From positions 16,743 through 80,742 of the forward strand of contig CAYZTL010000001.1 of NCBI GenBank assembly GCA_964481465.1: DNA of 64,000 nt. Reading direction: 5' to 3'. Both the position numbers and the translations under genes were made by a program. Under the pieces are notes generated by a model. It was given only the letters and a program-made list of their open reading frames with translations. It ran no database searches and was not told the DNA's origin. This document shows, piece by piece, positions 4,945 to 32,150 of the stretch. This DNA is from an uncultured Anaerolineales bacterium (GTDB lineage: Bacteria > Chloroflexota > Anaerolineae > Anaerolineales > UBA11858). Within the stretch, counting starts at the first letter, position 1, and every line of letters starts with the position of its first letter.

Positions 4945-6408
4945 CTACGCTAACAATCCAACCTTCCTATTGAACTCCCTGATCAGTTCATCCATATCCG
5001 GCACCTGCTGGTGGTAGGTATCCCAATAACTACCTTCATACCACTGCTGGTTGAGTTCCTCCACATCTTTCCCCTGCTGCTCGATCCAGGTGAAGTATTT
5101 CAAGTTGTGTACCCGGCGGCAATCCTCATAGGTGAGTTCCTGCAGGTAATTGGGCGTGATCCCTTCCAGGTAGCGGGCATGGTGGCGGGCTGCGTCCATT
5201 TCATCATATTTCCCGTATTCCTCATGCATCTCCTTCAGCCTACTCTGGTAAAGTTCCATGGAGTCGGTGAAGACGGTGAGGACGATATCATTGGATCCCA
5301 ACTCATAATATTTGGCGAACTTGATGGACATGATGGTATTGGCAATGCTTGAGAAACCCAGCAAATCCAGCTGATTTACAGTTTCCTCCGGGACGCCTTG
5401 TTTGACAAGGTACTCACGGCCGGCGGGCTCATTGAAGAGGCGGGAGAGATTGGTCACCGCGTTGTCATCAATGCCCATCACCATATCCGTGTTCTTGACG
5501 TTATGGATCCAGGGCACGTGCTTGTCCCCGATGCCTTCGATGCGGTGGGCGCCAAAGCCATTTTCCAGCAGTGTCGGGCACTGCAGGGCTTCGCCGGCCG
5601 CGATCTTGCTGCCGGGGAAGAGCTCCTTCATGTAGTCCCCGCAGCCCAACGTGCCGGCGGAGCCGGTGGTCAGGGCCACCCCGCGGTAGCGATCATTCGG
5701 CCCCATCTCCTGCTGCAACACCTCTTCCATGGCATGACCGGTGACGTCGTAGTGCCACAGGTGGTTGCCAAACTCGTCAAATTGGTTGAAGACAAACACA
5801 TCGTCCCGCGTTTCTCTCAATTCCCAGACCTTGTCATAGATTTCCTTGACGTTGGATTCCGTGCCCGGAGTGGCGATCACTTCACCCGCCACTTTGGCCA
5901 GCCAGTCAAAACGTTCCTGGCTCATCCCTTCAGGCAGGATCGCGATCGATTCACAGGCCAGCAGGGAAGCATCATACGCCCCACCCCGGCAGTAGTTTCC
6001 GGTGGAAGGCCAAACCGCTTCATGGAACGTAGGGTCAAACTGTCCCGTCACCAGGCGGGGCACCAGGCAGCCAAAGGTAGCACCCACTTTATGCGAACCG
6101 GTTGGGAACCATTTTCCAACCAGAGCGATGATGCGGGCGTCAACCCCCGTCAAGCTTTTGGGAAGTTCCATGTAATTTACACCACCAAAGCCACCGCCGG
6201 TTTCCACGGGGTCGTTTTTCCAGGTGATGCGGAACAAGTTCCTGGGGGTAATGTCCCACAAACCAATATCCTTTATTTCTTCCTTTATTTTGTTGGGGAT
6301 GGTCTCTGGGTTTTTCATCTGCTCAAAGGTAGGGATGATAATATTCCGCTCCCGAGCCCGTTCCACCGTTCGTCCCAGTTGTTTTTCATTAATCGTTAGA
6401 TCAATCAT
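4945..6408 (-). CDS. PLP-dependent enzyme, fold type II (tryptophan-synthase-beta/cysteine-synthase-like), long form with C-terminal helical extension; OrtB-like
   Basis: FPTGSHKVGATFG (candidate PLP lysine in a PTGSxK context) and TTGSAGTLG (glycine-rich phosphate loop). 487 aa. Exact reaction is not assignable from sequence alone. Confidence 0.75.
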   Translation of the reverse strand: MIDLTINEKQLGRTVERARERNIIIPTFEQMKNPETIPNKIKEEIKDIGLWDITPRNLFRITWKNDPVETGGGFGGVNYMELPKSLTGVDARIIALVGKWFPTGSHKVGATFGCLVPRLVTGQFDPTFHEAVWPSTGNYCRGGAYDASLLACESIAILPEGMSQERFDWLAKVAGEVIATPGTESNVKEIYDKVWELRETRDDVFVFNQFDEFGNHLWHYDVTGHAMEEVLQQEMGPNDRYRGVALTTGSAGTLGCGDYMKELFPGSKIAAGEALQCPTLLENGFGAHRIEGIGDKHVPWIHNVKNTDMVMGIDDNAVTNLSRLFNEPAGREYLVKQGVPEETVNQLDLLGFSSIANTIMSIKFAKYYELGSNDIVLTVFTDSMELYQSRLKEMHEEYGKYDEMDAARHHARYLEGITPNYLQELTYEDCRRVHNLKYFTWIEQQGKDVEELNQQWYEGSYWDTYHQQVPDMDELIREFNRKVGLLA

Positions 6409-6719
6409 GTTCTCCTATTCCCTTATTAAAACGCAAGAACAGCCTTCTCCTCCCCACCTAAGTTCTGGATCACATAGGGTCTGATTTAAAAAGACCCAAT
6501 TTAAAAGTTCCCGTGCTAACATTCATGCTCAGGCATAAAAAGGTTTTGGAGAATTCCTCTCTAATTATTAGAGAGAAGGGCTTCCCCACAGACAAAGATA
6601 ACCATCATTAGGCCTAGCATAATCAAACACGCCCGGCAAATCCGGAAAGCCACACCTGGCAAATTACACAACCACCGGTGATTATGGAAACAAGAAAATA
6701 TACGGCAAAATCACCTCAA

Positions 6720-6760
6720 AACCATTTATACTGCGGTATTTCAGCTAATTCAACGTGATT
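6720..6760 (-). promoter_or_regulatory. Conserved promoter/operator core, copy A (drives the PLP-enzyme gene)
   Basis: On the minus strand: -35 TTGAAT (6753-6748), 17-nt spacer, -10 TATAAA (6730-6725). 37/41 identical to the cores at 14965-15005 and 31295-31335. An AT-rich conserved flank lies upstream. Confidence 0.55.
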
Positions 6761-7085
6761 TTAGTAATAATTTATATAATTTTATGATATTTTCATAATC
6801 GGCAGACAAGTCCGATTTCCTCTATGTGCTTCCAGGGATGATGTTCCCGATTCATCTGTTACCCAACTGGTTCCCGACTTGATCTGGGACGAAGGACACC
6901 TCCAACTTCCCTTATGTGCTGGTATACTGATCTGTAGAAAACTGTTGATTTACCTGGCTGTTGGTGCGAGTTGATAACCTTGGGTACGTAGTTAAAAGCG
7001 GCCCGGTAACAAACTGGAAGTGTTCAACACTGGTCTTCGCTACAGATTTGTACTATTCACCTTGTCATATGAGATGGGATGAACC

Positions 7086-7577
7086 ATGCAACCATTAGAT
7101 GAACTTGATCTCGCTATCCTGGCTGAACTGGAACACAATGCCAGAATCATGGTCACCGAACTGGCAAGGCGACTCGACAGCCCCACTTCCACGATCCGCG
7201 ATCGAATACAAAGACTCGAAGATGAGGGAGTGATCAATGGATATACCGCGATCATTAATCCTGAAAAACTTGGCCTGGGCATCAAAGCTGTCATTAAAGT
7301 AAAGCGGGCCAAAAACATCTCGCTGGAGAACTCTCTTTACGAACCCTCAAAACTGCTTGCAGTGACCAGGGTACAAGCGCTGACTGGTGACACAGATGAA
7401 CTCATTACCGTTTATGCCCGTGATGTGGAAGATCTTAAAGACATTATTTACAATAGAATAGGATCGCTTCCAGGTTTGTCCTGGTTGAGCACCGGAATTG
7501 TTTTGGACGAGATCAGCTCCCCCCTGACCCGCCGCTTCCGCACCAAGCCAGACAGCGAAGAACAAAAAAATTCATAG
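7086..7577 (+). CDS. Lrp/AsnC family transcriptional regulator (paralog 1)
   Basis: N-terminal HTH LDELDLAILAELEHNARIMVTELARRLDSPTSTIRDRIQRLEDEGVI plus a C-terminal RAM/AsnC-type ligand domain. 163 aa. Confidence 0.9.
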   Translation: MQPLDELDLAILAELEHNARIMVTELARRLDSPTSTIRDRIQRLEDEGVINGYTAIINPEKLGLGIKAVIKVKRAKNISLENSLYEPSKLLAVTRVQALTGDTDELITVYARDVEDLKDIIYNRIGSLPGLSWLSTGIVLDEISSPLTRRFRTKPDSEEQKNS

Positions 7578-9421: not shown

Positions 9422-10670
9422 TCACTTTCCACCCGCAGAAAATTTTTCATTCTCCAGGATACTATGGCTGAGGATCTGGAATGCTTTATTGATCTGCTTT
9501 TCATGGATGATCAATGGGGGCATCAGGATAATCGACTTTTCCGTTTGGGCAATATCCACAAGTAAACCCTTTTCCAAACAGCTTAAAGAGATGCGTTTCG
9601 CCAAGGACTCGTTGCCGTACTCATTCTCGGGGAAATCAATTCCCCAGACCAATCCTTTTCCATGGACATCCGTAACAAGTGCATTATCTGTTGCCAGGCG
9701 ATATACATTCGAACGCATAAGTTCTTCCTTCGTTAGTAGTTTGTCAAACAGGTCCTCTTCAAGCATTCGCAATGTCTCCCTTGCAGACACACAAGCTAAT
9801 GACACATTTGGATCATCTGGAGTCCTGTTTGTATCGACTGATTTATCGTGAATTAATAAAGCCATGACCATACCAGCACTTCCCCCTTCTGCGAGAATTA
9901 TGATTTCAGGCTTAACAATCCAATTTCTGTTAGCAAAAAACGTGCCGGTCCTCCCAAATGCGGTTCTTGTTTCATTACAAATCAGCAGTATACCAAATTC
10001 TTCAGCGATGAGCTTTAATCTGACATAGAACGCCCGCGGAGGGGACGCGCATCCAGCTTCTATCATAATTGGTTCATACTACCGCGGCTACTTTTTCAAA
10101 CACCTCGCTGAAATTTGTGTTGCCTGCAACAAGGCCTGCTGGCGTTTTCCCATTTACTGCAAAGATAAACTTGTCCAGCGTAGTAAAGGATACATTATTC
10201 AAACCTTTGTACCGATTTTTATTTCCTTCAATTACTAAAACCTCCTCACGTTTTGTAACGTCTCTAGAAATATCTATCGCACTTTTTAGTGCCCTGGTTC
10301 GTGAAGAGAACACTATTCCCTTCCTGTCATAGCAGTCAGGTGCGTAATTTAATATTTCATTCATACACTTGCCTTTTGCTGTATTCATCCAAGAATCGCG
10401 AGGATAACGCATCAACAGGTTCGCTTCACTAAATACAGCTTTCTTGATATCTTCATTATTAAAACCTGTCACTGCCTCACTGGCGCAAGCCATATCAAGG
10501 AATTTATTCCCATCTACATCCCGGATGATCGCCCCTGCTGCTTTTTCGATGACAAAGGGAAACGGTTCGGATTCCCAACTTTTCATGTGCTGAGACAGAA
10601 TGTCTTTGCTCTTCGGGCCTGGAACAGATGTTTTTATATCGGGCATTTCCTGATGCAGTAAACGACTCAT
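9422..10670 (-). pseudogene. Class-III aminotransferase, frameshifted and with degenerate active site
   Basis: Two ORFs (10670-10074 and 10066-9422) are the N and C halves of one aminotransferase. They join as ...AAVV|YEPIMIEAGCASPP only after a 1-nt frame change near 10070. The DEVQTGFGRTG motif reads CNETRTAFGRTG (D to N), and the lysine position reads ILAEGGSAG (K to E). Confidence 0.75.
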
Positions 10671-10955
10671 CTTATTTCACACCGTCTGTCGTAGAGAAAA
10701 TTGCCTTAAATGTTAAATAAAGAAAGCACTCAAACCCCAAGACGCTCATTTTATGTCATGGGCTATCGATACCCGATTAACGCTGTTTACAGCATCTGTC
10801 TACCAATAGATTGCCTATTTTCCCAGTCAATTACCCCTCTCGAAATGATAGTGTTGTGTGTATGCGTTGCTGAATGAATATGAGGGACTCCTCATCCTAT
10901 GAAAATAGAAAATTAGATTTCACAGGATGAGGAGTTTGATTTTAATGATTCTAGT

Positions 10956-12299
10956 CTACCGGACTAGATTCTGTTTCTCAATGAAATCATTCAAGACTAT
11001 CTCGAGATCTGGTTTACCGATCTCCTGCAACCGGTAGTGAACCCTTGTTGCAGGCACATTAATATCGATGATGCGTCCCAGGTCAATAGGCGTGCCAATG
11101 ACAACCGCCTCGCACGCTGTATTGTTGATTGTGGTTTCAAGATCTTTCAGCATCTGATCGCCATACCCCATAGCGGGTAATAGAGTACCAATGTCCGGAT
11201 AGGTCTCAAACGTCTCAGTTAAACCACCTACTGTATAGGGTCTTGGATCAACAAGTTCTGCTGCGTTGAATTTTCGAGCCGCAACCACTCCAGCGCCAAT
11301 GTCCATCTCCCCGTGAGTAAGGGTTGGGCCGTCTTCAACCACAAGCACCTTTTTTCCGCTGATGATCTCAGGGTTTTCAACATCGATCACCGAAGCAGCT
11401 TCGACAACGGTAGCATCCGGGTTTACTTTCCTGATATTCTTCCTAACGGTATTAACATCTGATATACCTGCAGTATCCATTTTGTTGATAATCACTACAT
11501 CTGCGATCCGCAATGTAACCTCACCAGGGTAATACCGCAGCTCATGACCTGCTCGAAGGGGGTCGACCACAGTCACCTGCAGATCAGGGAAATAGAATGG
11601 AGGTTCATTGTTCCCCCCATCCCAGACAATGACATCGCATCCATCGGGGTCATCTTCAGCCGCCCTCAGTATAGCTTCATAATCTACTCCAGAGTAGATC
11701 ACATTTCCGCGGACGATATGCGGTTCATACTCCTCCATTTCTTCAACTGTGCAGTTGTGCTTATCCAGATCTGAGAGGTCTGCATACCGCTGGACTTTTT
11801 GAGCGGCTAAATCTCCATAAGGCATGGGGTGCCTTATGGCCACAACTTTCAACCCTTTTTCCATGAGGATTTCAATAATCTTCCTCGATGTTTGGCTCTT
11901 TCCTGAACCTGTTCTAACCGCTCCTACACCAATGACGGGTTTGGAACTCTTGAGCATAGTATCATTGGGACCCAGTAAAACTAAGCTTGCACCAGCAGCT
12001 TGCACAATAGCCCCAACAGACATGACGTGTTGATATGAAACATCGCTGTACGAGAAAGCACAATCGTCTACATCTAGCTCTTTGATAAGCTTTGGGAGAT
12101 CTCTTTCCGGGTAAATTCGTATACCTTCCGGATAAAGATCACCTGCTAATTCAGGAGGGTACTTTCTTCCTTCTATTCCCGGTATCTGAGCTGCAGTAAA
12201 ACCCACCACATTATAGGCATCGTTTTCTCGATAATAGGTATTAAAGTTGTGAAAATCTCTTCCAGCAGCGCCAATGATGATCACATTTCTTTTTTTCAT
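10956..12299 (-). CDS. COG2403-type P-loop GTPase-like protein (family often annotated as cyclic 2,3-diphosphoglycerate synthetase-like)
   Basis: N-terminal Rossmann-like IIIGAAGRDFHNF, Walker A GAVRTGSGKSQTS, DGGNN, and NKMD (an NKxD guanine-specificity motif). 447 aa. Starts 22 nt after the OTC stop, so probably cotranscribed. Confidence 0.7.
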   Translation of the reverse strand: MKKRNVIIIGAAGRDFHNFNTYYRENDAYNVVGFTAAQIPGIEGRKYPPELAGDLYPEGIRIYPERDLPKLIKELDVDDCAFSYSDVSYQHVMSVGAIVQAAGASLVLLGPNDTMLKSSKPVIGVGAVRTGSGKSQTSRKIIEILMEKGLKVVAIRHPMPYGDLAAQKVQRYADLSDLDKHNCTVEEMEEYEPHIVRGNVIYSGVDYEAILRAAEDDPDGCDVIVWDGGNNEPPFYFPDLQVTVVDPLRAGHELRYYPGEVTLRIADVVIINKMDTAGISDVNTVRKNIRKVNPDATVVEAASVIDVENPEIISGKKVLVVEDGPTLTHGEMDIGAGVVAARKFNAAELVDPRPYTVGGLTETFETYPDIGTLLPAMGYGDQMLKDLETTINNTACEAVVIGTPIDLGRIIDINVPATRVHYRLQEIGKPDLEIVLNDFIEKQNLVR

Positions 12300-12321
12300 T
12301 ATAGTCTCCTCTTTTTGGACA

Positions 12322-13323
12322 TTAAATGCCTAATGTTGCTACCATTACAGCCTTTATGGTATGTACTCGATTTTCCGCTTCATCAAATACGATGGAAGGT
12401 GCTGATTCAAATACTTCTTCAGTCACCTCCATAGCCTCCAACCCAAATTTGTGATAGATATCTTTCCCGATCTCTGTATCACGATTATGAAAAGCTGGCA
12501 GGCAGTGCATGAATTTTATATCTGGGTTTCCAGTCTTTTCCAACACTTCCAAGTTTACCTGATAGGGTTTTAATAACTCGATCCTTTTCTTCCAAACATC
12601 CTCAGGCTCCCCCATTGAAACCCAAACATCAGTGCACAAAAAATCACAGCCTTCGATACCCTTATCCAGATTAGCCGTAACTGATATTTTCGCGCCCGTT
12701 TCCTCAGCGATTTCCCGTGCCTGATTGACCAAGGCTTTATCTGGTTGAACACTCTCAGGGGCAACAGATCGAAAATCCATTCCCATTTTTGCTGCCCCTA
12801 TCAATAGCGAATTGCCCATATTGTTACGAGCATCGCCAAGATATGCAAATTTGACCTCAGAGAGTGGCCTTTCACTATGTTCCATCATTGTCATCAGGTC
12901 AGCCAAAACCTGGGTTGGGTGGAACTCATTCGTCAAACCGTTCCATACAGGAACCCCAGCAAACTCGGCCAGCGTTTCTACTCTCTCCTGACCAAAACCC
13001 CGGTATTCAATTCCGTCGTACATCCTGCCTAATACCCGGGCCGTGTCCTTGATGGTCTCTTTTGTGCCCAATTGAGATCCAGTAGGCCCCAAGTATGTGG
13101 TGTGCGCACCCTGATCATATGCAGCTGTCTCAAAAGCACACCTTGTTCGGGTGGAGGCTTTCTCGAATATAAGGCCGATGTTCTTGCCTTTCAACAAAGG
13201 ACGTTCTGTCCCTGCATATTTCGCTTTCTTCAAATCCTTGGAAAGCTCTAGCAAAAATTTTATTTCGTCAGGGGTAAAATCCAACAACTTCACGAAGCTT
13301 CTACATCGTAAATTACGGGACAT
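12322..13323 (-). CDS. argF: Ornithine carbamoyltransferase
   Basis: STRTRCAFE (carbamoyl-P site), [14 protein letters not shown] (ornithine SMG loop), HCLPAFH. AGGAGGAGGA SD. Anabolic versus catabolic role is not decidable. Confidence 0.9.
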
Positions 13324-13522
13324 GTCCTCCTCCTACAATTATCTAAAATTAAATGCAAAACTATGGCTTCCATTTCTTTCAATACATGCTTATATTCCGA
13401 ATAATATTTCCGACACAACTCCTGTTAATCTATTTTGTGGCTAACTATTTCTTTCAGCCCAAATGTTGGAAAAGTGTCTTTCCCGCAACTTGGGATACCC
13501 ATCAAGTCTATCCAATACTATG

Positions 13523-14677
13523 CTAAAATCCCTCAACCTGATGAGGGAAGTAATCCTCGCAATCGCCTTCCCGGTACACATCCGCCGTGCAGCAGTGCAG
13601 CCCACCACCAAAAGGCGACACATCATAAAACGGGACAGGAACAACGTCAAACCCATACGAATCCAACAACTCCATCACCGGTTTCTCGCTGGCCTCCACA
13701 CAGACAGTGTCCGGACCCAGAGAGAGGGTGTTCATGTTCAACCACCAGCTGCAAAAATCATAGGGCTGCTTTTCCTCGAGTGTTGCCTCTGGCGCTTCCA
13801 CTAGCTCCCAATCATTCTTCCTGAACCACTCAAATTCTCTCTCATCAAGCGGAGGCCGCGTGGGATTGATCAGTGCAAATCCCGGCCGCAGGGGTACGAG
13901 CGTTGAGTCCAAATGCCACGGCAGCAGTTCCCTGCGCCCCACCTTGTGGATGCGGTGGTTAGCAAAATGGCGGCGCAGCCAGTCAATCCCGGCATCATTC
14001 GTCACCATCGACTTCTGGACAATCAGGTCTTTCCCAAAACGGACAACATCTGCCGCATCAAATAAGGGCTCTTTCTCGGTGAGTATCCAGTCGCCCCGCT
14101 CCGCACGCTCAAACTTCTCCTCCTCTGTCATCGCATGCCATTCTTCCCACCAGTTTTCCTTATACGACTCTTCCGTCAATCGCGGCTTGGGCGCCGCTTC
14201 AAAGCGAAAATTCGGATCCTCCTTGAAGTATTGCTCAAACAAAGGACGATAACATATAAATTCAAACCAGCGGCTGCGGTAGGACATCGTGGCTTCTAGA
14301 ATCTCATTGCCAACCGTGAGTAAGATGTCCCGCACAGGCGCACAGCCAAACATCGTTTCTTGCTCCCAGTCAGGCGTTGCTACTTTCTGGCTGAAATCAA
14401 TCGGAGTAGGTCGGTCCACGCGAATACCCCGATCTTCAAGGAGTTTGGCGAAATTATCCAACTGTTCGTTCGCCCTGTCTACCATCTCCTGAGGGTAAGG
14501 ACCATACTCCCCTAACGGGAAGCCGTCCTCCGGATAATCCCGCTGAATGGCAATTTCCGGCGCCTGGATCATCGTCCCGTCCGCGCGCCCCACAATCACA
14601 TGCTTCAAGGGATCCCATTCGTTCCAGGAACTCACTTTCGTCTTTCTGGATTCTTCTTGTCCCATATTCATCCTCAC
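13523..14677 (-). CDS. Amidinotransferase, arginine:glycine amidinotransferase (AGAT/GATM)-like, copy 1
   Basis: SSWNEWDPLKHVIVGRA, PVRDILLTVGNEILEATMSYRSRWFE and C-terminal GGGLHCCTADV (catalytic Cys) align with the remembered human AGAT sequence. The track start is GTG (14677). The ATG at 14665, preceded by GTGAGGA, may be the real start. Confidence 0.85.
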   Translation of the reverse strand: MRMNMGQEESRKTKVSSWNEWDPLKHVIVGRADGTMIQAPEIAIQRDYPEDGFPLGEYGPYPQEMVDRANEQLDNFAKLLEDRGIRVDRPTPIDFSQKVATPDWEQETMFGCAPVRDILLTVGNEILEATMSYRSRWFEFICYRPLFEQYFKEDPNFRFEAAPKPRLTEESYKENWWEEWHAMTEEEKFERAERGDWILTEKEPLFDAADVVRFGKDLIVQKSMVTNDAGIDWLRRHFANHRIHKVGRRELLPWHLDSTLVPLRPGFALINPTRPPLDEREFEWFRKNDWELVEAPEATLEEKQPYDFCSWWLNMNTLSLGPDTVCVEASEKPVMELLDSYGFDVVPVPFYDVSPFGGGLHCCTADVYREGDCEDYFPHQVEGF

Positions 14678-14748
14678 TTATATATATAGCTGATCCTTCT
14701 CCACTTTAACGCTTGTCCGCAAAGGGTGGGTCCGATTCTTCTACCGGC

Positions 14749-14783
14749 AATAAAAATACCTGAGTACATGTATCTGCTCAGGT
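14749..14783 (-). terminator. Terminator-like hairpin inside the AGAT 5-prime leader (candidate attenuator), copy 1
   Basis: Minus sense: ACCUGAG-12 nt loop-CUCAGGU followed by AUUUUUAUU. It lies about 72-105 nt upstream of the start codon and about 180 nt downstream of the predicted -10. Confidence 0.35.
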
Positions 14784-14964
14784 AAAAAGTTCAAACACAT
14801 CCGTTGTTTTGGGCGGATATGGGGTTCCCCAAATATTCGGCTGATCGTCGTGGGATTTGGTACAATCAATCATAATCTGAGGGTGTTGCGAACAATGAAT
14901 GTTATCCTTGCTTGTTCGGTAACGATAATACAGAATAGCTAATAAAGCGGGAAAATCGTCTCGT

Positions 14965-15005
14965 AACCATTTATACTGCGGAATATTTGCTAATTCAACG
15001 TGATT
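14965..15005 (-). promoter_or_regulatory. Conserved promoter/operator core, copy B (drives AGAT copy 1)
   Basis: On the minus strand: -35 TTGAAT (14998-14993), 17-nt spacer, -10 TATAAA (14975-14970). Predicted leader is about 290 nt. Confidence 0.6.
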
Positions 15006-15101
15006 AATGTAATAAAATTCGCAGATTTATGTTATTCTCACAATCTTTGAGTGTGTGTTCGTCCAACCAAAAGCAATCGCCCCCTTCGACGCAGCTGCGC
15101 G

Positions 15102-15254
15102 TTAGCTGGCGAGGCAGGAGCGTTTCGCCAGCTTCTCAAGGCTGGCGCGCGCCACATCGTTTTTGGTGAGCACCTGATTGTATGTCAGCTTATCTAACAG
15201 GACGCGCTTGAGTTTCCCGGTCGAATTACAGACAACCCCTTGTTTCTCAGACAT
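15102..15254 (-). CDS. Hypothetical small protein (50 aa from MSEKQGVV...)
   Basis: ORF with a GAGGA-like SD 8 nt upstream of the ATG at 15254. No recognisable motif. Could be a gene fragment at the repeat boundary. Confidence 0.3.
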   Translation of the reverse strand: MSEKQGVVCNSTGKLKRVLLDKLTYNQVLTKNDVARASLEKLAKRSCLAS

Positions 15255-15363: not shown

Positions 15364-16563
15364 TTAGCCGAGATAAGCTTGAGCGATTGCCATGTGTGCA
15401 GCAGTGCCCTTCAATAGTTGTTCAATCTCAATGTACTCGTCCACGATGTGAGCCAGGGCGCTTTGAGAGGGGCCGAAAATAATGGTTGGAAGCCCCATTT
15501 CTCCGGCGCTAGCACTTCCGTTGGTGCAGTAAGGCGCTGCAAGATAGGTCTCCGGCAATCCAATGGTACGCATACCAACCAGTGCTTTTTGGACAAGCTC
15601 TTCTTCACGTGGTGTAATCCATCCTGGGTGAAAATCTGCCATTCGCAACTGCTCGCCAGTGTAACAAGATAGGACTATGTCAGGGCATTCTACTGACACG
15701 CCCTCTATATCGTTCAAGGCTTCCTGCAGGCCCTCCAGCATACTGGTCTGAGTCTCGCCTGGACCGAGCCGTCGGTCGAAACGGACACGGCATCCGTCCG
15801 GCACGATTGTGTCACCGGGGTAGGGTGATGAGATGATTTCGATAAGTTCTGTGACACCAGGGCCAAGCACATCATCCTCTGGCAGAGGCATGGCACGCAC
15901 GCTCTCGATCACCTCTATCATCTTGTATACCGCATTCAAACCCTTTTGAGGGGTGGAAGTGTGTGCAGCCCGCCCTTGCGTCTTAAGCGTGATACCCGCA
16001 CGGCCTTTCTGGGCATATCCCAGAGTCAGGTTGGAGGGCTCACCGATGACTACCGCATCTGCTGGGTATTCGCGTAGGATGGCGCCCAGTGCAGCGCCTT
16101 CCCACCCTTCCTCGCCAACGCTGGCCGAAACGGTGATCGTCCCATCGAACGCTTCTCGTGAGAGGAAGGCAGCACCACAAATCATAGCTGCCAGTGGTCC
16201 TTTCATGTCTGTTGTGCCTCTGCCCCAGATGCGCCCTTCGGTCACATGTGCCTCAAAGGGAGGATGACGCCAGGAGTCGGGCTGGGTGGCCGCAACGATG
16301 TCAATGTGACCGTCAAAGTGGAGATTCTTGCCTGGCCCACTACCCCACCGCTTTCCTATCACACTGCCGTATTCATCGGTCCATATCTCGTCGTAGCCCA
16401 GCGTTTTCATCCAATGGGCGACCACCCTCCCAGCTTCTTCTTCCTGACCGGCTGGCGACTTGGCCTGGACCAACTCGCGCGTCAGTGCGACAACCTGTTC
16501 CTGTTGTGAACCTGTCAAATTCATGGTGTGCCTCTCTAATTTCCCAAAGATTGGATTGTTCAT
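15364..16563 (-). CDS. M20 family metallohydrolase (ArgE/DapE/YgeY-like)
   Basis: HFDGHIDIV, GRGTTDMKG and GEEGWEG metal/catalytic motifs; a dimerisation-domain insertion; 399 aa. An alternative start is MNLTGSQQEQ at 16524. Confidence 0.85.
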   Translation of the reverse strand: MNNPIFGKLERHTMNLTGSQQEQVVALTRELVQAKSPAGQEEEAGRVVAHWMKTLGYDEIWTDEYGSVIGKRWGSGPGKNLHFDGHIDIVAATQPDSWRHPPFEAHVTEGRIWGRGTTDMKGPLAAMICGAAFLSREAFDGTITVSASVGEEGWEGAALGAILREYPADAVVIGEPSNLTLGYAQKGRAGITLKTQGRAAHTSTPQKGLNAVYKMIEVIESVRAMPLPEDDVLGPGVTELIEIISSPYPGDTIVPDGCRVRFDRRLGPGETQTSMLEGLQEALNDIEGVSVECPDIVLSCYTGEQLRMADFHPGWITPREEELVQKALVGMRTIGLPETYLAAPYCTNGSASAGEMGLPTIIFGPSQSALAHIVDEYIEIEQLLKGTAAHMAIAQAYLG

Positions 16564-16588
16564 GCCATGCTCATAGAGGGAGGGATTG

Positions 16589-16900
16589 CTATCTGCCAGA
16601 GGTTGTTGTCCGTTTTCCCTTACCCGTTGACTGTTGGGTGTCGAGCATGGAGTCTAAGCTCTCGTCAGCGACAAAGATGTGGATACACATTGCGTCACGA
16701 GCGACTTGAGGGTCCCGTTTCTTGATTGCTGCCAGCAGTTCAAAGTGGTCAGGTAAGTCCCGCTGAGGATCGGAAAAAAAAGGACATTAATCTATTCATT
16801 TTCTCCGGAAACTGCTCCACTAATATCTATGCTTTCCATATAATTTCATAGGCAGTTTCACATAAAACGCAATTCCCGAAATGACACTTACACGTTATCG
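16589..16900 (-). pseudogene. Remnant of a GntR-family (FCD domain) regulator
   Basis: A start-less frame reads ...DPQRDLPDHFELLAAIKKRDPQVARDAMCIHIFV...*, which resembles the FCD C-terminal helix pattern EHxxLLxAIxxxDxxxAxxAMxxHL. Upstream frames are broken around a T8 run (16771-16778). No HTH domain is present. Confidence 0.4.
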
Positions 16901-16939
16901 ATGGGCTGGCAGCATTGGGACGAGAACGCCGACGCAGGT

Positions 16940-18919
16940 CTAAGGCTTCCGATCAGCCTCTTTTTCTAATACATAGCGATTCATCCACTCCAGAAGCGCC
17001 TCGTTCTGGGCTCGGCGTACAACCGGTGACCCTTCAATTGATCCTGCATGGGAACTATAGGGAAGACGCAGCATCTCAACAACACAATTGTTGTCTTTGA
17101 GAACAGCATAGAATTGTTCAGATTGTTCTGCGGGACATCGATAATCCTCTTCTGCCTGAATTAGCAATGTGGGTGTTTTACAACGATGCGCGTATGTGAT
17201 CGGGGAGCACCGCCGGTAAACTCCTGGGATTTCATGCGGCAGCCCACCTAATTCCTCTGGAGTGCGTTGAACACCCTGATCGCTGACGCCGTATATAGTC
17301 ACCCAGTTGGTAACTGGATTTTCCGGCACAGCAGCTTTAAAACGATCTGTTTGGCCAACTATCCAACAGGACATATACCCCCCATAGGAGAGCCCACAGC
17401 AGCCCAGGCGATCTGGATCAACAATACCTTTCTCGATGGTGAAATCGATACCCTTCATCAGGTCTTTATAATCAAGATTGCCGTAATCACCAATGATCGC
17501 TGAACTAAAATCGTCCCCATACCCAATTGATCCGCGATAATTAATGAACAGCACTGCGTATCCCGCACCAGCGAGCATGTGATGATCGAAGGAAAATATA
17601 TACCCACAACTGGCGTGAGGCCCACCATGAATATAAAGAACTGCTGGGTAAGGAGCCTCGCTTGTGGGGGGTGTTAATACCCAACCTTCAACTTGAACCC
17701 CATCACTACCGGGAAATGATAATTTTTCAACCTCCGGGATTAGCCAATTACTCCTCAATTCGTCGTTGAGATGAGTAAGTTGTCGCTCGTTGGATCCATC
17801 CAATTCAGAAACAAAAAGATCCACTGGATTGTGGATAGTGCTGACAGCAAAAACCATCCGCCTGGGATCTATGCCAAGTGGCATACAGGTTCGCTCCCCT
17901 GAGATGACGGGATTCCATGTCTCTGGCCCTTCAAGGGCAACGCGGTAGATATGAAGCGCCCCCCCATCTTGGGCTGGAATATAAGCTGTCCTGCCCTCCT
18001 CGCCGATTAAAATCCTTGGTCTCAGCAATGAACCAAGAGGTAGATCGCCATCCAAATCTCCCCCCACAGGAAGCGAAAGACTCGATGTCCTGGAAACCGG
18101 TTCGCCTGCCTGTATATCAGTTACCCACAGATTCTCATTCGAGCCGTCAGGAAGCCCATGCGGGTTCCCTATGAATGCGATATGTTTGCTGTCTGGCATC
18201 CAAACAGCAGAAAAACCATAGCCCCAATCCTTTACAAGGTCAGTAACTTCCCCATCTAGATACACCACTCTTAGAATTGGGCGGACCCTAAAGGAAACCG
18301 GGGTCATCTCAGTCGTAAAGAGGATCTTATCTCCATCGGGTGACCAAACAGGCCTGCTGTTATAGGCCTCATCATGGGTCAGTCGCTTCGGCTTCCCCCC
18401 TTCGACAGAGATGATATATATATCCTGCCCATCCTCTTCCAGATATCCCATCCCATTAACCCGATATATATGGCGGGAAATGCGGTAAGGCTTTGTGCGG
18501 TCTTGGGCTTCAACAGCCGGACAGGCAGCGAAAGCGATATGCTCACCGTCTGGCGACCAAGCAGGACCGTCATTGACGCCCAGGGGCATATCTGTCAACG
18601 GCCATGACTCACCCCCATCCACAGCGATAAGGCGGATTTGTGGTTTATCCTCTCGGGTTGAAAGAAAAGCAATCAATTTGCCATCTGGTGACCAAGCTGG
18701 ATTTGTATCCTGAGCTAATCCTGATGTAAGCTGATTTGAGATGCCCGTTTCAAGAGACAACAGCCAAATGGCAACTTTTTCCTTCTCACCTCCACCATCC
18801 ATAGTGGAAATGGTATAGGCTATAGTCTTTCCATCAGGTGATAGCTGCCCGTCCTGAATGAAATTAAGTTTAAACAAATCCTCGGGTTGTACTGTCCGTA
18901 ACGTTTGCTTCCCGTCCAT
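16940..18919 (-). CDS. S9 family serine peptidase (prolyl oligopeptidase / acylaminoacyl-peptidase type) with N-terminal beta-propeller
   Basis: Repeated SPDG(K/E)xIAF propeller motifs; catalytic GLSYGGYM (GxSxGG) and a C-terminal alpha/beta-hydrolase domain. 659 aa. Confidence 0.88.
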   Translation of the reverse strand: MDGKQTLRTVQPEDLFKLNFIQDGQLSPDGKTIAYTISTMDGGGEKEKVAIWLLSLETGISNQLTSGLAQDTNPAWSPDGKLIAFLSTREDKPQIRLIAVDGGESWPLTDMPLGVNDGPAWSPDGEHIAFAACPAVEAQDRTKPYRISRHIYRVNGMGYLEEDGQDIYIISVEGGKPKRLTHDEAYNSRPVWSPDGDKILFTTEMTPVSFRVRPILRVVYLDGEVTDLVKDWGYGFSAVWMPDSKHIAFIGNPHGLPDGSNENLWVTDIQAGEPVSRTSSLSLPVGGDLDGDLPLGSLLRPRILIGEEGRTAYIPAQDGGALHIYRVALEGPETWNPVISGERTCMPLGIDPRRMVFAVSTIHNPVDLFVSELDGSNERQLTHLNDELRSNWLIPEVEKLSFPGSDGVQVEGWVLTPPTSEAPYPAVLYIHGGPHASCGYIFSFDHHMLAGAGYAVLFINYRGSIGYGDDFSSAIIGDYGNLDYKDLMKGIDFTIEKGIVDPDRLGCCGLSYGGYMSCWIVGQTDRFKAAVPENPVTNWVTIYGVSDQGVQRTPEELGGLPHEIPGVYRRCSPITYAHRCKTPTLLIQAEEDYRCPAEQSEQFYAVLKDNNCVVEMLRLPYSSHAGSIEGSPVVRRAQNEALLEWMNRYVLEKEADRKP

Positions 18920-18987
18920 GTCCTTCCTTGTGCAACAATCAAATCAAAAAAGCTTCAATGCCTTTCTCTACCAACACAAATCCTTTC

Positions 18988-20634
18988 TTATCGTGTAAAC
19001 GTGCGGCAAAATTCGATACCTGAAAGATCTGCGCGGAATGCTTTGTTGTCAACGACGGCACCAAATCGGATTCGCTCTGGCAAGCGATCGTCTCTCCCAA
19101 CCCGAAATAGTCCGTCCTCTAATTCAACTAACACATCTTCCTGTCCTGATGGGTGAACCAGCATAAGAGTACCCTTCCGAAGGATTACCCGGAGATTTGA
19201 ATACCAGGGGTTATGAGTACGATAGTGCCCAAGAAAAGCTTCCCATCCTTCAGGATGATGGAAGCTTGTCGGACCACCGTATTGTTCGTTTGTGTACCAG
19301 TCCGGGCCATGGAAAGCTTCCACAACTTTTCCATCCTCGCGCCTGAAACGGAGAAGGAAAAGTTCGAAGTCCGGATGATTCACATAGAAACAATCCTGAT
19401 CTCGCTGCTGAAGTTCAATGAGCTCCTCGTTATAGGAAAAGATCAGCCGATCCTCCTTAGATTTCAGTTCGAAAGACCGGGGGCTCACCTTTCGATCATT
19501 ACGAGAGGTAATCTGAAAGGTTCCGACATAATCCTTAGCATTTTCAACCTTGTACTGGTCGATCAGGGGGATTTCGGGAAGAGTCTCCTGATTTAAATTG
19601 GCTCGCGCCAGCTCCAATGCGTATTTGATAATCTCTTCATCCGCATGGTCACCAGGAGCGTTCATAAGCACAACCGACCCCAATCCATCTTCCATATCGA
19701 GAAAAATGAAGGCATAATACCCAACCATCCCTCCTCCGTGATAAAAGCAGGTATGTCCATCTAATTCTCGAACCACAAGCCCATACCCGTAGAAAGAGTC
19801 CTTTCCCTCCCCTGCTGATTCTATTACTGGTGTCGTCATCAGATCAAAACTTTCTTCGGACAAGATACGCTCTTGTGGTCCCTTTCCACGATTCAACAGC
19901 ATGCGCAAGTAGGTTGACATATCAGCAACCGTCGAGGCAAGACTGCCTGCGCCTTCTGCATGTTCTAACCATGTCGCAGGAGCCAGGGGGCGGCTGAGAG
20001 ACAAAGGGCGATCATCATAATAAGCCTCATATCCAACAACCAGTCTGTCGCGCGTCTCGTTCTTGACGATAGGCTCAGTCGATGACATCTCCAAAGGATC
20101 GAGGATTCTTTCCTGAATGATATCCCCATAGGGCTGACCAAGTAGATCCTCAAGAATCACCCCAAGTGTTTTATAGCCTGAATTTGAATAATGGAAAAAA
20201 GTTCCGGGGGGAACAGCAGTCTCTGTCTTGCGTAAAGACCAAACCTCATAGTGCGGATCACCCGGAAAGTCAGGACCGGCGATGATTCCAGCAGTGTGGC
20301 TTAGAAGATGGTGTATCGTGATTGGCTCATAATCAGAATTTACAGAGAACCAAGGAAGGTATCGCGTTATGGGCTCATGAAGATCCAATAAACCTTCCTC
20401 CACCAGCTGCAAGATGGCAATGCTGGTAAAAGATTTCCCAATGGACCCAATCTCAAACAGCATCTCCGGTGAAAGAGGTGTTTCCGCTGCTAGATCAGAA
20501 AAACCATGGGTGGATTCATAAATCTGTTCCTCCCGATTGGTCACCGCCACAGCAACAGCAGGGATATTAAAAACCTTCCTATTCTGATCTATGAATTGGT
20601 CCAATCGGGTGTAAGACTCCTCTGAGTATGTCAT
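18988..20634 (-). CDS. Beta-lactamase-fold serine hydrolase, D-aminopeptidase (DAP)/esterase-like, with about 190-aa C-terminal extension
   Basis: SxxK (SIGKSF) and YxN (YSNSGY) motifs of class-C/PBP-like hydrolases. The 548-aa length is compatible with multi-domain DAP-type enzymes. Confidence 0.85.
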   Translation of the reverse strand: MTYSEESYTRLDQFIDQNRKVFNIPAVAVAVTNREEQIYESTHGFSDLAAETPLSPEMLFEIGSIGKSFTSIAILQLVEEGLLDLHEPITRYLPWFSVNSDYEPITIHHLLSHTAGIIAGPDFPGDPHYEVWSLRKTETAVPPGTFFHYSNSGYKTLGVILEDLLGQPYGDIIQERILDPLEMSSTEPIVKNETRDRLVVGYEAYYDDRPLSLSRPLAPATWLEHAEGAGSLASTVADMSTYLRMLLNRGKGPQERILSEESFDLMTTPVIESAGEGKDSFYGYGLVVRELDGHTCFYHGGGMVGYYAFIFLDMEDGLGSVVLMNAPGDHADEEIIKYALELARANLNQETLPEIPLIDQYKVENAKDYVGTFQITSRNDRKVSPRSFELKSKEDRLIFSYNEELIELQQRDQDCFYVNHPDFELFLLRFRREDGKVVEAFHGPDWYTNEQYGGPTSFHHPEGWEAFLGHYRTHNPWYSNLRVILRKGTLMLVHPSGQEDVLVELEDGLFRVGRDDRLPERIRFGAVVDNKAFRADLSGIEFCRTFTR

Positions 20635-20674
20635 TTAATGATCTCTCTTCTGCTTTAGCATGAGAATTGTGAGT

Positions 20675-21655: not shown

Positions 21656-21676
21656 TCACACCCTCACATAATGATG

Positions 21677-23260: not shown

Positions 23261-23396
23261 ATTTATCTTTTTATCTTTCCCAACTGAATTGCCCAGATCA
23301 TTTGGTATTAATGATTACTCTTTCCAGCAACATCCGTAAAATGGTGTAATTCAAAATCAAGATATAAATCAGTGACGAAAAGTTGATTATACTTTT

Positions 23397-24431: not shown

Positions 24432-24436
24432 AATTA

Positions 24437-29280: not shown

Positions 29281-29750
29281 TCACGACCCAAGTTCTCGGA
29301 GAGCTATTTGCACAATATTTTCCACCAAATGGCTTGCTAATATCTCCCCTTTTTCAGGTGATGTGTAAGTTGCCTTGTAAAAAACACCTGATTTGGTCAT
29401 GATTTCGTCTGGCGGCGGAAAGATGCTGTATTTAGGTACTCGTTCAGGCTGGTCATCCACTATCTTGTCCTCTCGAACACGTTCCGGTGCAAAGTATTGC
29501 ATGAGTGCAGTCTCTGAAAGGGCAGCATGCTCCATCTCCCACCCCGGAAAACCGTATCAGAGAAAATCTCATCCAATACCATAGCCTGCAATTCCTCGTA
29601 AACCATCAACGCCAGGTTTTTTGGTATCACGACATCAACGTTCAATGGCAAATGAAGCCCATGTTGTTCTAGCGATCCCACTGGGAGAATAATAACTCTT
29701 CGACCAACTTCGTTCTGATATTCCTCCCAAGTCATATGTTCGATAAGCAT
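29281..29750 (-). pseudogene. Creatininase-family (creatinine amidohydrolase fold) gene remnant
   Basis: N-terminal ORF: RVIILPVGSLEQHGLHLPLNVD (family signature). C-terminal ORF: MEHAALSETALMQYFAPERVRED (HAGxxETS-like). The pieces are in different frames and total about 145 aa, versus the ~250 aa I expect for this family. Confidence 0.7.
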
Positions 29751-29852: not shown

Positions 29853-31007
29853 TCAGAATCCCTCAACCTGATGAGGGAAGTAATCCTCGCAATCGCCTTC
29901 CCGGTACACATCCGCCGTGCAGCAGTGCAGCCCACCACCAAAAGGCGACACATCATAAAACGGGACAGGAACAACGTCAAACCCATACGAATCCAACAAC
30001 TCCATCACCGGTTTCTCGCTGGCCTCCACACAGACAGTGTCCGGACCCAGAGAGAGGGTGTTCATGTTCAACCACCAGCTGCAAAAATCATAGGGCTGCT
30101 TTTCCTCGAGTGTTGCCTCTGGCGCTTCCACTAGCTCCCAATCATTCTTCCTGAACCACTCAAATTCTCTCTCATCAAGCGGAGGCCGCGTGGGATTGAT
30201 CAGTGCAAATCCCGGCCGCAGGGGTACGAGCGTTGAGTCCAAATGCCACGGCAGCAGTTCCCTGCGCCCCACCTTGTGGATGCGGTGGTTAGCAAAATGG
30301 CGGCGCAGCCAGTCAATCCCGGCATCATTCGTCACCATCGACTTCTGGACAATCAGGTCTTTCCCAAAACGGACAACATCTGCCGCATCAAATAAGGGCT
30401 CTTTCTCGGTGAGTATCCAGTCGCCCCGCTCCGCACGCTCAAACTTCTCCTCCTCTGTCATCGCATGCCATTCTTCCCACCAGTTTTCCTTATACGACTC
30501 TTCCGTCAATCGCGGCTTGGGCGCCGCTTCAAAGCGAAAATTCGGATCCTCCTTGAAGTATTGCTCAAACAAAGGACGATAACATATAAATTCAAACCAG
30601 CGGCTGCGGTAGGACATCGTGGCTTCTAGAATCTCATTGCCAACCGTGAGTAAGATGTCCCGCACAGGCGCACAGCCAAACATCGTTTCTTGCTCCCAGT
30701 CAGGCGTTGCTACTTTCTGGCTGAAATCAATCGGAGTAGGTCGGTCCACGCGAATACCCCGATCTTCAAGGAGTTTGGCGAAATTATCCAACTGTTCGTT
30801 CGCCCTGTCTACCATCTCCTGAGGGTAAGGACCATACTCCCCTAACGGGAAGCCGTCCTCCGGATAATCCCGCTGAATGGCAATTTCCGGCGCCTGGATC
30901 ATCGTCCCGTCCGCGCGCCCCACAATCACATGCTTCAAGGGATCCCATTCGTTCCAGGAACTCACTTTCGTCTTTCTGGATTCTTCTTGTCCCATATTCA
31001 TCCTCAC
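29853..31007 (-). CDS. Amidinotransferase, AGAT/GATM-like, copy 2 (protein identical to copy 1)
   Basis: Identical 384-aa translation. The last codon and stop differ (TTC TGA here, TTT TAG in copy 1). Confidence 0.85.
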   Translation of the reverse strand: MRMNMGQEESRKTKVSSWNEWDPLKHVIVGRADGTMIQAPEIAIQRDYPEDGFPLGEYGPYPQEMVDRANEQLDNFAKLLEDRGIRVDRPTPIDFSQKVATPDWEQETMFGCAPVRDILLTVGNEILEATMSYRSRWFEFICYRPLFEQYFKEDPNFRFEAAPKPRLTEESYKENWWEEWHAMTEEEKFERAERGDWILTEKEPLFDAADVVRFGKDLIVQKSMVTNDAGIDWLRRHFANHRIHKVGRRELLPWHLDSTLVPLRPGFALINPTRPPLDEREFEWFRKNDWELVEAPEATLEEKQPYDFCSWWLNMNTLSLGPDTVCVEASEKPVMELLDSYGFDVVPVPFYDVSPFGGGLHCCTADVYREGDCEDYFPHQVEGF

Positions 31008-31078
31008 TTATATATATAGCTGATCCTTCTCCACTTTAACGCTTGTCCGCAAAGGGTGGGTCCGATTCTTCTACCGGC

Positions 31079-31113
31079 AATAAAAATACCTGAGTACATG
31101 TATCTGCTCAGGT
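31079..31113 (-). terminator. Terminator-like hairpin inside the AGAT leader, copy 2
   Basis: Identical to 14749-14783. Confidence 0.35.
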
Positions 31114-31294
31114 AAAAAGTTCAAACACATCCGTTGTTTTGGGCGGATATGGGGTTCCCCAAATATTCGGCTGATCGTCGTGGGATTTGGTACAATCAAT
31201 CATAATCTGAGGGTGTTGCGAACAATGAATGTTATCCTTGCTTGTTCGGTAACGATAATACAGAATAGCAAATAAAGCGGGTAAATCGCCTCGT

Positions 31295-31335
31295 AACCAT
31301 TTATACTGCGGAATATTTGCTATTTCAACGTGATT
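31295..31335 (-). promoter_or_regulatory. Conserved promoter/operator core, copy C (drives AGAT copy 2; back-to-back with lrp paralog 2)
   Basis: On the minus strand: -35 TTGAAA (31328-31323), 17-nt spacer, -10 TATAAA (31305-31300). Confidence 0.6.
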
Positions 31336-31658
31336 AATGTAATAAAATTCGCAGATTTATGTTATTCTCATGATTAATGGGTGCATGTCTCGTCAGTTTG
31401 GATTGCCCGGGACTCTCGTCCGGACACACCTGTTTTACCTGCGCCGTTCACTAAACCCCGCCAGTAAGACATCTCCAGCGTCCCGTCTGTGCTGATATAC
31501 TTATTTGCGGGTGACTGTTGGTTTGGTCAACCTCTAACGCGATTGGATGACCTAAGACTGAGAGTATTCCGGGTTATTCACATATCTAGTGTATATAACA
31601 AACGTATCTACAAAGTAGTCTTGTTCTTCATACGCTCTTAGATCATAAAGGATGAAAA

Positions 31659-32150
31659 ATGCGGCCATTAGATGAGCTCGATCTCGCTATCCTTGCTGAA
31701 CTGGAAAACAATGCCAGAATCATGGTCACTGAACTGGCAAGGCGACTCGACAGCCCCACTTCCACGATCCGCGATCGTATTCAAAGGTTAGAAGAAGATG
31801 GAGTGATCAGCGGATACACCGCCATCATCAATCCTGAAAAACTCGGCCTGGGCATCAAGGCGGTCATTAAGGCCAAGCGGGCGGAAAATATCTCGCTGGA
31901 GAACTCTCTTTTCGAACCCTCAAGATTGCTTGCGGTTACAAAGGTGCAGGCCTTGACCGGGGACACGGATGAACTCATCACCGTTTATGCCCGCGATGTG
32001 GAGGATCTAAAGGATCTCATCTACAATAGAATAGGGTCGCTTCCAGGACTGTCCTGGTTGAGCACTGGCATCGTATTGGACGAAATCAGCTCACCGCTGA
32101 CCCGCCGCTTCCTTTCCGAGACGAATAATGATGAGCCAGAAAGCTCGTAA
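31659..32150 (+). CDS. Lrp/AsnC family transcriptional regulator (paralog 2)
   Basis: 163 aa. By manual alignment it differs from paralog 1 at about 11 of the first 150 residues and has a divergent acidic tail. AAAGGA SD. Confidence 0.9.
   Translation: MRPLDELDLAILAELENNARIMVTELARRLDSPTSTIRDRIQRLEEDGVISGYTAIINPEKLGLGIKAVIKAKRAENISLENSLFEPSRLLAVTKVQALTGDTDELITVYARDVEDLKDLIYNRIGSLPGLSWLSTGIVLDEISSPLTRRFLSETNNDEPESS

Follow-up and report, generated by a model that had tools for sequence, protein, structure and literature searches.

Three adjacent genes in a 64,000-nucleotide stretch of DNA from an uncultured Anaerolineales bacterium (the whole of this stretch is referred to below as the window) encode an amidinotransferase of the arginine:glycine amidinotransferase (AGAT) family, an ornithine carbamoyltransferase (OTC) and a P-loop protein of the group labelled COG2403. 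We propose, with a probability of roughly 0.55, that the trio is a catabolic unit in which the arginine synthetase module, composed of ArcB (the OTC) and ArcE (the P-loop protein), is fronted by the amidinotransferase. ArcE was described by Michimori, Yokooji and Atomi (PNAS, 2024), the T. kodakarensis enzyme being TK2200; it is an arginine synthetase, or ATP-forming arginine deiminase, that catalyzes the reversible reaction Arg + ADP + Pi <-> Cit + NH3 + ATP (PMC11032458). The ArcE-ArcB-ArcC pathway of T. kodakarensis yields 2 ATP per arginine and can supply carbamoyl phosphate (PMC11032458; Front. Microbiol., 2026, PMC13260591). While this pathway has been known since 2024 and its component families are known, we have not found an amidinotransferase in front of it described in the literature, and none is mentioned in the two arginine synthetase papers (PMC11032458, PMC13260591). 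The activity of ArcE has been demonstrated for the archaeal enzyme only (PMC11032458); the locus and its relatives provide a concrete bacterial context for it.

The open reading frames (ORFs) of the trio all lie on the minus strand, at 13523-14677, 12322-13323 and 10956-12299, with gaps of 199 nt (AGAT/OTC) and 22 nt (OTC/ArcE) and a strong Shine-Dalgarno sequence ahead of each. An earlier note on this DNA had given the same three co-directional genes and the same gaps, and our ORF coordinates agree with it exactly. The first ORF, read from a GTG, comprises 384 codons; its true start is likely the ATG at 14665, which gives the 380-residue form found in NCBI. Judged by its alignments, the product is a true amidinotransferase of the AGAT family: human AGAT is matched over the full length (PDB 1jdw, E 3.6e-77; 1jdw/1jdx over residues 9-373), and so are SxtG, HsvA and StrB1. 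The catalytic triad Cys407-His303-Asp254 is kept, as are the equivalents of the Arg/Orn-binding residues Asp170, Asp305, Arg322 and Ser355 (human numbering throughout), and the motifs FDAAD, PWHLD, GGGLHCCT, RDILL, NPTR and CSWW, which align with the residues of human AGAT, are invariant in 18 homologues. Three positions differ from human AGAT: Asn300, Met302 and Ser354 have Leu, Trp and Cys in their place. Several close homologues (P0164, P0169, P0186, P0189, P0194) bear the name “serine/threonine protein kinase” in NCBI, an evident annotation error.

By the same type of evidence, the second gene encodes a canonical ornithine carbamoyltransferase. Both domains are present (PF02729, OTCace_N, and PF00185, OTCace), together with the motifs STRTR, HPTQ, DxxxSMG and HCLP. 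The protein scores 570 bits in the NCBIfam model PRK04284 (cut-off 515), and with the model for putrescine carbamoyltransferase it reaches 291 bits (cut-off 500), a result that marks it as a canonical OTC. It matches PDB 3upd (E 4e-158), and its scores against anabolic (ArgF) and catabolic (ArcB) structures are similar. Orthologues at 63-69% identity adjoin a carbamate kinase (CK) gene at three other loci (L043, L067, L081).

The Walker A and NKxD motifs that the earlier note had read in the third product are there (AVRTGSGKS and INKMD). Its statement that the protein has no established function no longer holds, the family having been characterized in 2024 as ArcE (PMC11032458). We found no functional account in the literature under the names COG2403 and sll0572, and no family-level Pfam or NCBIfam match was obtained. 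Over its full length the protein is 45% identical to proteins from Hyperthermus butylicus (E 1e-139) and Pyrodictium occultum (E 8e-134), both genera being among the listed carriers of ArcE (PMC11032458); the link to ArcE runs via these crenarchaeal homologues and not via the TK2200 sequence. The bacterial taxa recovered in the homologue scan overlap the published list as well (Virgibacillus, Bacillus, Desulfovibrionaceae, Calditrichota, Acidobacteriota, Dysgonomonadaceae; PMC11032458). ArcE is reported to be a P-loop NTPase with an LpxK-like core and low similarity to cyclic 2,3-diphosphoglycerate synthase (cDPGS), and to be annotated as hypothetical protein or GTPase (PMC11032458). The window protein has this same profile: an LpxK-like core, marginal similarity to cDPGS, and homologues whose source names are “hypothetical” or “GTPase”. 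Its AlphaFold2 model, built from a 40-sequence alignment (pLDDT 94.8; with 17 close homologues the value was only 47.7), finds as its best PDB folds in Foldseek cDPGS (8oru, E 1.5e-18) and the P-loop kinase LpxK (4ehy, E 4.5e-9). Taken together, homology and predicted fold make it very probable that the third gene is arcE, and we infer that the bacterial protein has the activity of its archaeal counterpart.

A different identity for this protein, such as a cDPGS, a chaperone GTPase of the G3E type or a substitute for carbamate kinase, appears highly improbable. NCBI names homologues “cyclic 2,3-diphosphoglycerate synthase” or “GTPase”, and cDPGS is the best PDB fold match. The superposition of the model on cDPGS, however, has a TM-score of 0.45 and an rmsd of 15 Å, while similarity to the sequence of the solved Methanothermus enzyme, far from being full-length, is limited to 104 residues in a phmmer comparison (E 1.4e-3, 20.9 bits); moreover, the cyclic diphosphoglycerate itself is confined to hyperthermophilic methanogens (PMC10690619). 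A weak cobW/HypB match and the NKxD motif could speak for a G3E protein. Here again, a family-level match is lacking: the cobW score (24.5 bits) comes from residues 239-299 only, a segment of about 60 residues, and the hypB score is 20.9 bits against a cut-off of 121. None of these identities squares with the 45% full-length identity that ties the protein to ArcE-bearing Crenarchaeota. The two NCBI names are carried by hundreds of bacterial genes, and our survey indicates that they are probably misapplied.

The surroundings of the ArcE family were surveyed with one genome per species, 80 loci being kept from many phyla at 62-76% identity. Neighbouring ORFs were clustered de novo across 77 loci, corresponding to 75 species-representative genomes plus L001 and L004. 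The neighbours include carbamoyltransferases at 20 loci and a carbamate kinase at 14, at 12 of the latter immediately downstream and on the same strand; PyrI, CarA/CarB and a divergent arginyl-tRNA synthetase gene (ArgS) are also frequent. Altogether, at 30 of the 77 loci an enzyme of carbamoyl-phosphate metabolism (CK, OTC or PyrB with PyrI, CarAB) is encoded no more than 3.5 kb from the ArcE homologue, and one protein (P0248) consists of an N-terminal carbamate kinase fused to an ArcE-family domain. Association with arcB and/or arcC is thus seen both in the window, where the OTC gene is adjacent, and across phyla, where CK and carbamoyltransferase genes are the neighbours. We rejected the notion that the third gene encodes a non-orthologous carbamate kinase, since 12 loci have a true CK immediately beside the homologue and one protein is a fusion of the two. 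With this function excluded, and with neighbours that are carbamoyl-phosphate enzymes, the third gene points to arginine/carbamoyl-phosphate metabolism.

Two side observations concern the same family. In Bacteroidales, the homologue adjoins pyrB-pyrI or carA-carB and faces argS (L008-L010, L021, L025, L035, L039-L042, L048, L069, L077), a context that would suit biosynthesis or the supply of carbamoyl phosphate. Another member (P0342) carries an intein with a LAGLIDADG domain.

The trio is linked beyond this genome, so that one outcome named in the earlier note as refuting its idea, the lack of co-occurrence in other genomes, is not what is seen. Two diverged metagenomic contigs contain the three genes, all intact, in the order AGAT-OTC-ArcE, with gaps of 3 and 74 nt (L101) or 20 and 65 nt (L115); in the second, an ECF-type transporter precedes them. 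The proteins encoded are 64-80% identical to those of the window and the composition of the genes is uniform. Other orders occur elsewhere: ArcE overlaps AGAT by 4 nt in L095; a Desulfobacteraceae metagenome-assembled genome (MAG) has AGAT-CK-ArcE (L007); a Dehalococcoidales MAG has ArcE-AGAT-Na+/solute symporter-CK (L029); and two loci, L004 and L005, have AGAT-creatininase-OTC remnant-ArcE. Such repeated independent linkage argues for selection, and the association of the three genes is more than chance. In the last two loci, the OTC gene has been reduced by an internal deletion to an 89-codon remnant (9735-10004 in L004, 7019-7288 in L005), ArcE being intact.

The description of the trio as “one apparent operon” in the earlier note was plausible but too simple. 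In its favour, neither a pattern scan nor folding (z-score -0.46) identified a terminator in the 199-nt spacer between AGAT and OTC, and a strong hairpin directly following the ArcE stop codon is likely to mark the 3′ end of the transcription unit, which would then comprise all three genes. Furthermore, the junction formed by the AGAT 3′ end, the spacer and OTC is kept in a relative (L167/L168) whose DNA is about 83% identical overall. The spacer is approximately 92% identical in this relative, as against about 83% for the flanking genes, and the conserved sequence probably has a function. On the other side stand a promoter-like site within the spacer (TTAACA-16-TATTAT at 13401-13428, conserved), a repeat that terminates at the AGAT stop codon (see below) and a difference in the GC content of third codon positions (GC3), which is 0.62 in the amidinotransferase gene, 0.45 in OTC and 0.43 in ArcE, housekeeping genes ranging from 0.59 to 0.65.

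In the mechanism that we envisage, the active-site Cys of the amidinotransferase would accept the amidino group from a guanidino compound taken up by the cell and deliver it to ornithine, giving arginine and an amine. The donor could be creatine (arising from creatinine through creatininase) or guanidinoacetate; with the latter, the AGAT reaction, known to be reversible, would run in reverse. ArcE would convert arginine, ADP and Pi to citrulline, NH3 and ATP, and OTC would split citrulline with Pi into ornithine and carbamoyl phosphate. A carbamate kinase, presumed to be encoded elsewhere in the genome, would turn carbamoyl phosphate and ADP into ATP, CO2 and NH3; alternatively, carbamoyl phosphate would enter biosynthesis. 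Ornithine would thus be a catalytic carrier that is regenerated, the net outcome being the conversion of one guanidino group to 2 NH3 and CO2 with the gain of at most 2 ATP. As ArcE interconverts arginine and citrulline directly, the cycle can be closed without arginine deiminase (ADI) and without ArgG/ArgH. Indeed, no ADI, CK, ArgG or ArgH was detected in a Pfam scan of 40 ORFs (every non-overlapping ORF of at least 180 residues in the 64-kb window), nor did tblastn with CK and DDAH/ADI-like seeds reveal a CK or ADI gene in the window, in line with what the earlier note had reported. This is not a canonical arcABC operon, neither arcA nor arcC lying within the window. The coupled cycle imagined in the earlier note is strengthened by the conserved synteny as far as the coupling of transamidination to Orn/Cit/Arg interconversion goes; as to the direction of flux, we infer it from gene context.

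Much of this context comes from the partners of the amidinotransferase. The most frequent partner of its clade is creatininase (L088, L092, L093, L099, L103, L107, L004). An intact orthologue of this enzyme scores 297.6 bits in the NCBIfam equivalog model TIGR04448 (cut-off 235) and matches the Pseudomonas creatinine amidohydrolase (PDB 1j2t, E 1.8e-62). In a marine sister clade (53-58% identity), a creatinase-like M24 gene is adjacent in 26 of 28 loci. The transporters flanking amidinotransferase loci are of the Bmp-type ABC, APC, SSF, ECF and TRAP classes, and the regulators belong to the GntR, cupin-HTH and Lrp/AsnC types. Such creatininase, transporter and regulator neighbours are what one would expect around genes that break down a guanidino compound taken up from outside; the window neighbourhood, rich in genes for peptide and amino-acid catabolism, was also counted in favour of the catabolic direction. 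The best lead for the donor, drawn from gene context, is creatine (from creatinine) or guanidinoacetate. A recurrent partner of another type is a pyridoxal phosphate (PLP) enzyme, whose gene directly follows the amidinotransferase in L094, L096, L097 and L098; in L095 it lies upstream, with ArcE between the two. In the sister-clade contigs (L122-L166), the neighbour has the Creatinase_N and Peptidase_M24 domains, and EamA or MFS transporters as well as a beta-eliminating lyase are often encoded close by.

The same three enzymes could in principle work in the opposite sense, with OTC forming citrulline from ornithine and carbamoyl phosphate, ArcE forming arginine from citrulline, NH3 and ATP, and the amidinotransferase transferring the amidino group to an acceptor amine with release of ornithine. 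A guanidino metabolite would then be made independently of ArgG/ArgH and aspartate. This cycle, which corresponds to the first alternative of the earlier note, is in our judgement unlikely. It would fit the absence of argG and argH from the window, the biosynthetic character of the AGAT-family members that are the best PDB matches, and the properties of ArcE, which is reversible, supports arginine synthesis in vivo and appears to be used by some bacteria instead of ArgG/ArgH (PMC11032458). It is rated below the catabolic alternative for want of biosynthetic company: methyltransferase, nonribosomal peptide synthetase/polyketide synthase, sugar-modifying and other tailoring genes are absent beside the trio at the loci examined. 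Furthermore, the recurrent partners are catabolic (creatininase, CK, uptake transporters, catabolic-type regulators), and in T. kodakarensis CK is reported to be unable to supply carbamoyl phosphate (PMC13260591).

The amidinotransferase gene and some 375 nt of upstream DNA occur twice in the window, as direct repeats 16,330 nt apart (13527-~15040 and 29857-~31370). The match is exact over 1413 nt (13527-14939 = 29857-31269), the only four mismatches all lying in the distal part, and the boundary of the repeat falls exactly at the amidinotransferase stop codon. An assembly artefact is an unlikely source of the identical copies: a contig from an independent assembly of the same sample (Logan L006) breaks 34 nt inside the 3′ end of the amidinotransferase gene, at the edge, as it would with a true repeat, and the contigs of the relative break at the equivalent point of the gene. 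Likely, the 100% identity of the two copies results from gene conversion. Since the AGAT-OTC junction is conserved in the relative mentioned above, it is not brand new, and the idea that a very recent insertion is its sole origin had to be softened. The earlier note had left out the identical second copy, as well as the creatininase remnant and the shared regulatory motif described below. In a contig from another relative (L169; JGI 3300022699), an S9 peptidase gene is joined directly to AGAT and this to the gene for the Opp substrate-binding protein (OppA), as would result if the two copies had recombined, if there had been tandem amplification or if the assembly had passed from one copy to the other. 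A DDAH-like gene is cut off at the upstream edge of repeat copy 1, leaving a remnant of residues 1-36 and 118-146; in L001 and L101, OTC-ArcE is flanked by DDAH-like genes that are intact.

A number of these observations weigh against the catabolic unit proposed here, and are considered together with the others that do so. The identity of the two copies, the end of the repeat at the stop codon and the different codon GC of OTC and ArcE mean that the present junction may reflect rearrangement or gene conversion more than local selection, and OTC-ArcE may be transcribed separately from the promoter-like site in the conserved spacer. Carried to its conclusion, this line of thought would have no coupling at all in this genome: arcB-arcE would be an ordinary module of arginine catabolism or carbamoyl-phosphate supply, and a mobile or duplicated amidinotransferase gene, with an attenuator-like leader, would have come to lie upstream by rearrangement, each of the two parts keeping its own promoter. 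The truncated DDAH-like gene abutting the repeat, the several pseudogenes of the region, the GC3 values and a promoter-like site better conserved than the genes themselves all agree with such a scenario, as does the fact that most ArcE loci are without an amidinotransferase, OTC-ArcE in L001-L003 included. It is nonetheless improbable, in our view: the genes are just as adjacent, closely spaced and even in composition in L101 and L115, other orders are found in L095, L007, L029 and L004, and the AGAT/spacer/OTC junction is conserved in the relative; arginine and ornithine, moreover, are metabolites shared by all three enzymes.

Further points against a catabolic unit concern distribution and biochemistry. 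ArcE is found at only 4 of 35 close amidinotransferase loci, many of which are on short contigs, and other loci pair the amidinotransferase with the PLP enzyme or creatininase alone. The 64-kb window has no carbamate kinase gene, and its creatininase gene is a pseudogene in which residues 1-66 and 151-240 are kept in different frames and about 84 codons (67-150) have been deleted. The NKxD motif is specific to the bacterial ArcE clade, archaeal homologues having TKAS instead; the nucleotide preference may therefore differ and should not be assumed. We found no assay of a bacterial ArcE in the literature. Lastly, to our knowledge, the characterized AGAT-family enzymes are all biosynthetic (GATM, StrB1, CyrA, SxtG, HsvA), and we know of no case in which creatine serves as amidino donor.

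A broader version of the proposal, tentative and with somewhat less than even odds, is that anaerobic Chloroflexi, Desulfobacterota and relatives ferment guanidino compounds by this route, conserving energy as two substrate-level ATP through an ornithine carrier and ArcE/ArcB/ArcC. It would amount to a carrier cycle resembling the urea cycle run backwards. The input of the pathway would be widened from arginine to creatinine, creatine and guanidinoacetate, compounds abundant in animal waste and sediments, and two ATP would be gained per guanidino group without urea or urease. An AGAT-family enzyme would here have a catabolic role for the first time, and the frequency of such genes in anaerobe metagenomes would be explained.

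The comparison with characterized systems shows where the locus departs from them. As in the T. kodakarensis pathway, a P-loop protein of the same family adjoins OTC, and CK adjoins homologues in many genomes; unlike in that pathway, the homologue is bacterial (probably of a Chloroflexi type), at 45% identity to the crenarchaeal members and with NKxD in addition, an amidinotransferase precedes the module (in the window, L101 and L115) and arcC is missing from the window. With the arcABC arginine deiminase pathway the scheme would share its OTC and CK steps, ATP being made from the guanidino carbon of arginine, but ArcA is not in the window, deimination would fall to an unrelated enzyme of the P-loop type with the gain of an extra ATP, and guanidino compounds besides free arginine may serve as input. 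The first enzyme resembles GATM/AGAT, StrB1, SxtG, HsvA, CyrA and AmtA in fold, full-length alignment, triad and Arg/Orn-binding residues, and differs from them in the Leu/Trp/Cys substitutions and in a context that is catabolic rather than that of a biosynthetic cluster.

Degradation of creatinine and creatine (creatininase, creatinase and sarcosine oxidase, or the creatinine deiminase routes of anaerobes) shares with the proposed scheme the creatininase partner and, in the sister clade, the creatinase-like M24 genes. It differs in that no canonical creatinase lies beside the clade and the creatininase of the window is not intact; transfer to ornithine would, in addition, replace the hydrolytic release of urea. 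Like the agmatine deiminase/putrescine carbamoyltransferase pathway, the scheme would funnel a guanidino compound to carbamoyl phosphate and ATP. In the agmatine pathway, however, deimination acts directly on the substrate and the carbamoyltransferase is a dedicated one, whereas here the amidino group would first be passed to ornithine.

Table 1. Features of the locus, with positions in the window and the evidence for each
Feature	Position	Strand	Evidence or remark
AGAT-family amidinotransferase, copy 1, 380 aa	13523..14665	-	PDB 1jdw full-length, PF02274
Ornithine carbamoyltransferase, ArcB/ArgF type, 333 aa	12322..13323	-	Pfam OTCace_N + OTCace, PRK04284, 3upd
Probable ArcE (“COG2403” P-loop protein), 447 aa	10956..12299	-	Homologues, AlphaFold2 model, neighbours
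199-nt spacer	13324..13522	-	Terminator-like fold absent; promoter-like site; conserved in relative
18-bp hairpin directly after ArcE stop, likely 3′ end of transcription unit	10887..10935	-	-31.3 kcal/mol, z-score -5.9
Putative promoter and ~300-nt 5′ leader, copy 1	14666..15040	-	Leader alignments, motif, fold z-score -2.2
Amidinotransferase, copy 2	29853..30995	-	BLASTP 384/384 identical to copy 1
Putative promoter/leader, copy 2	30996..31370	-	4 mismatches to copy 1, distal part
Putative promoter/leader, copy 3, diverged, upstream of PLP enzyme	6428..6800	-	Motif 6720-6760
Lrp/AsnC-type regulator, divergent from leader copy 2	31659..32150	+	Pfam
Lrp/AsnC regulator, divergent from leader copy 3	7086-7577		Pfam; 87% identical to the 31659..32150 regulator
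DDAH/ADI-superfamily gene remnant	15049..15254	-	tblastn with L001 DDAH-like protein
Creatininase pseudogene, downstream of copy 2	29281..29750	-	tblastn with intact L004 creatininase; ORFs
487-aa fold-type II PLP enzyme, distant CysK/CBS relative	4945..6408	-	62% identical to recurrent AGAT partner

Each amidinotransferase copy is preceded by what looks like an attenuator- or riboswitch-like leader of about 300 nt, with a GC-rich hairpin followed by a U-run just upstream of the ribosome-binding site (14749-14782; second copy at 31079-31112). No Rfam match to the leader was obtained in gathering or E-value scans, and the possibility of a known riboswitch was rejected on this account; nhmmer found no copies of the leader in related loci. 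A 41-nt promoter motif occurs three times in the window, where none is expected by chance, at 6720-6760, 14965-15005 and 31295-31335, always on the minus strand; the second of these reads TTGAAT-17-TATAAA. The motif precedes both amidinotransferase copies and the gene for the PLP enzyme, and two of the three occurrences face paralogous Lrp/AsnC regulators. This pattern suggests that the amidinotransferase and the PLP enzyme are co-regulated as part of a small regulon.

The region between the two amidinotransferase copies (15364-29127, minus strand) is a block of peptide and amino-acid catabolism genes, which include a YgeY-type M20 hydrolase, an S9 peptidase, an EutB-like dehydratase, an Amidohydro_3 protein, a beta-lactamase-fold protein (D-aminopeptidase-like) and an Opp-type ABC transporter, the latter with a fused permease-ATPase of 629 residues. 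On the opposite side of the trio, a class-III aminotransferase gene (9422-10670, minus strand) is split into ORFs of 198 and 214 codons that lie in different frames and together lack about 75 profile positions; it is a pseudogene, as L167, from the relative, has an intact 420-residue gene at the same position. Farther away, a single ORF of 1038 codons (34515-37631, minus strand) encodes a glycyl-tRNA synthetase in which the alpha and beta subunits form one chain, and a T-box leader (53230-53458, plus strand) precedes a class II aminoacyl-tRNA synthetase gene (53493-55298) whose domains fit threonyl-tRNA synthetase.

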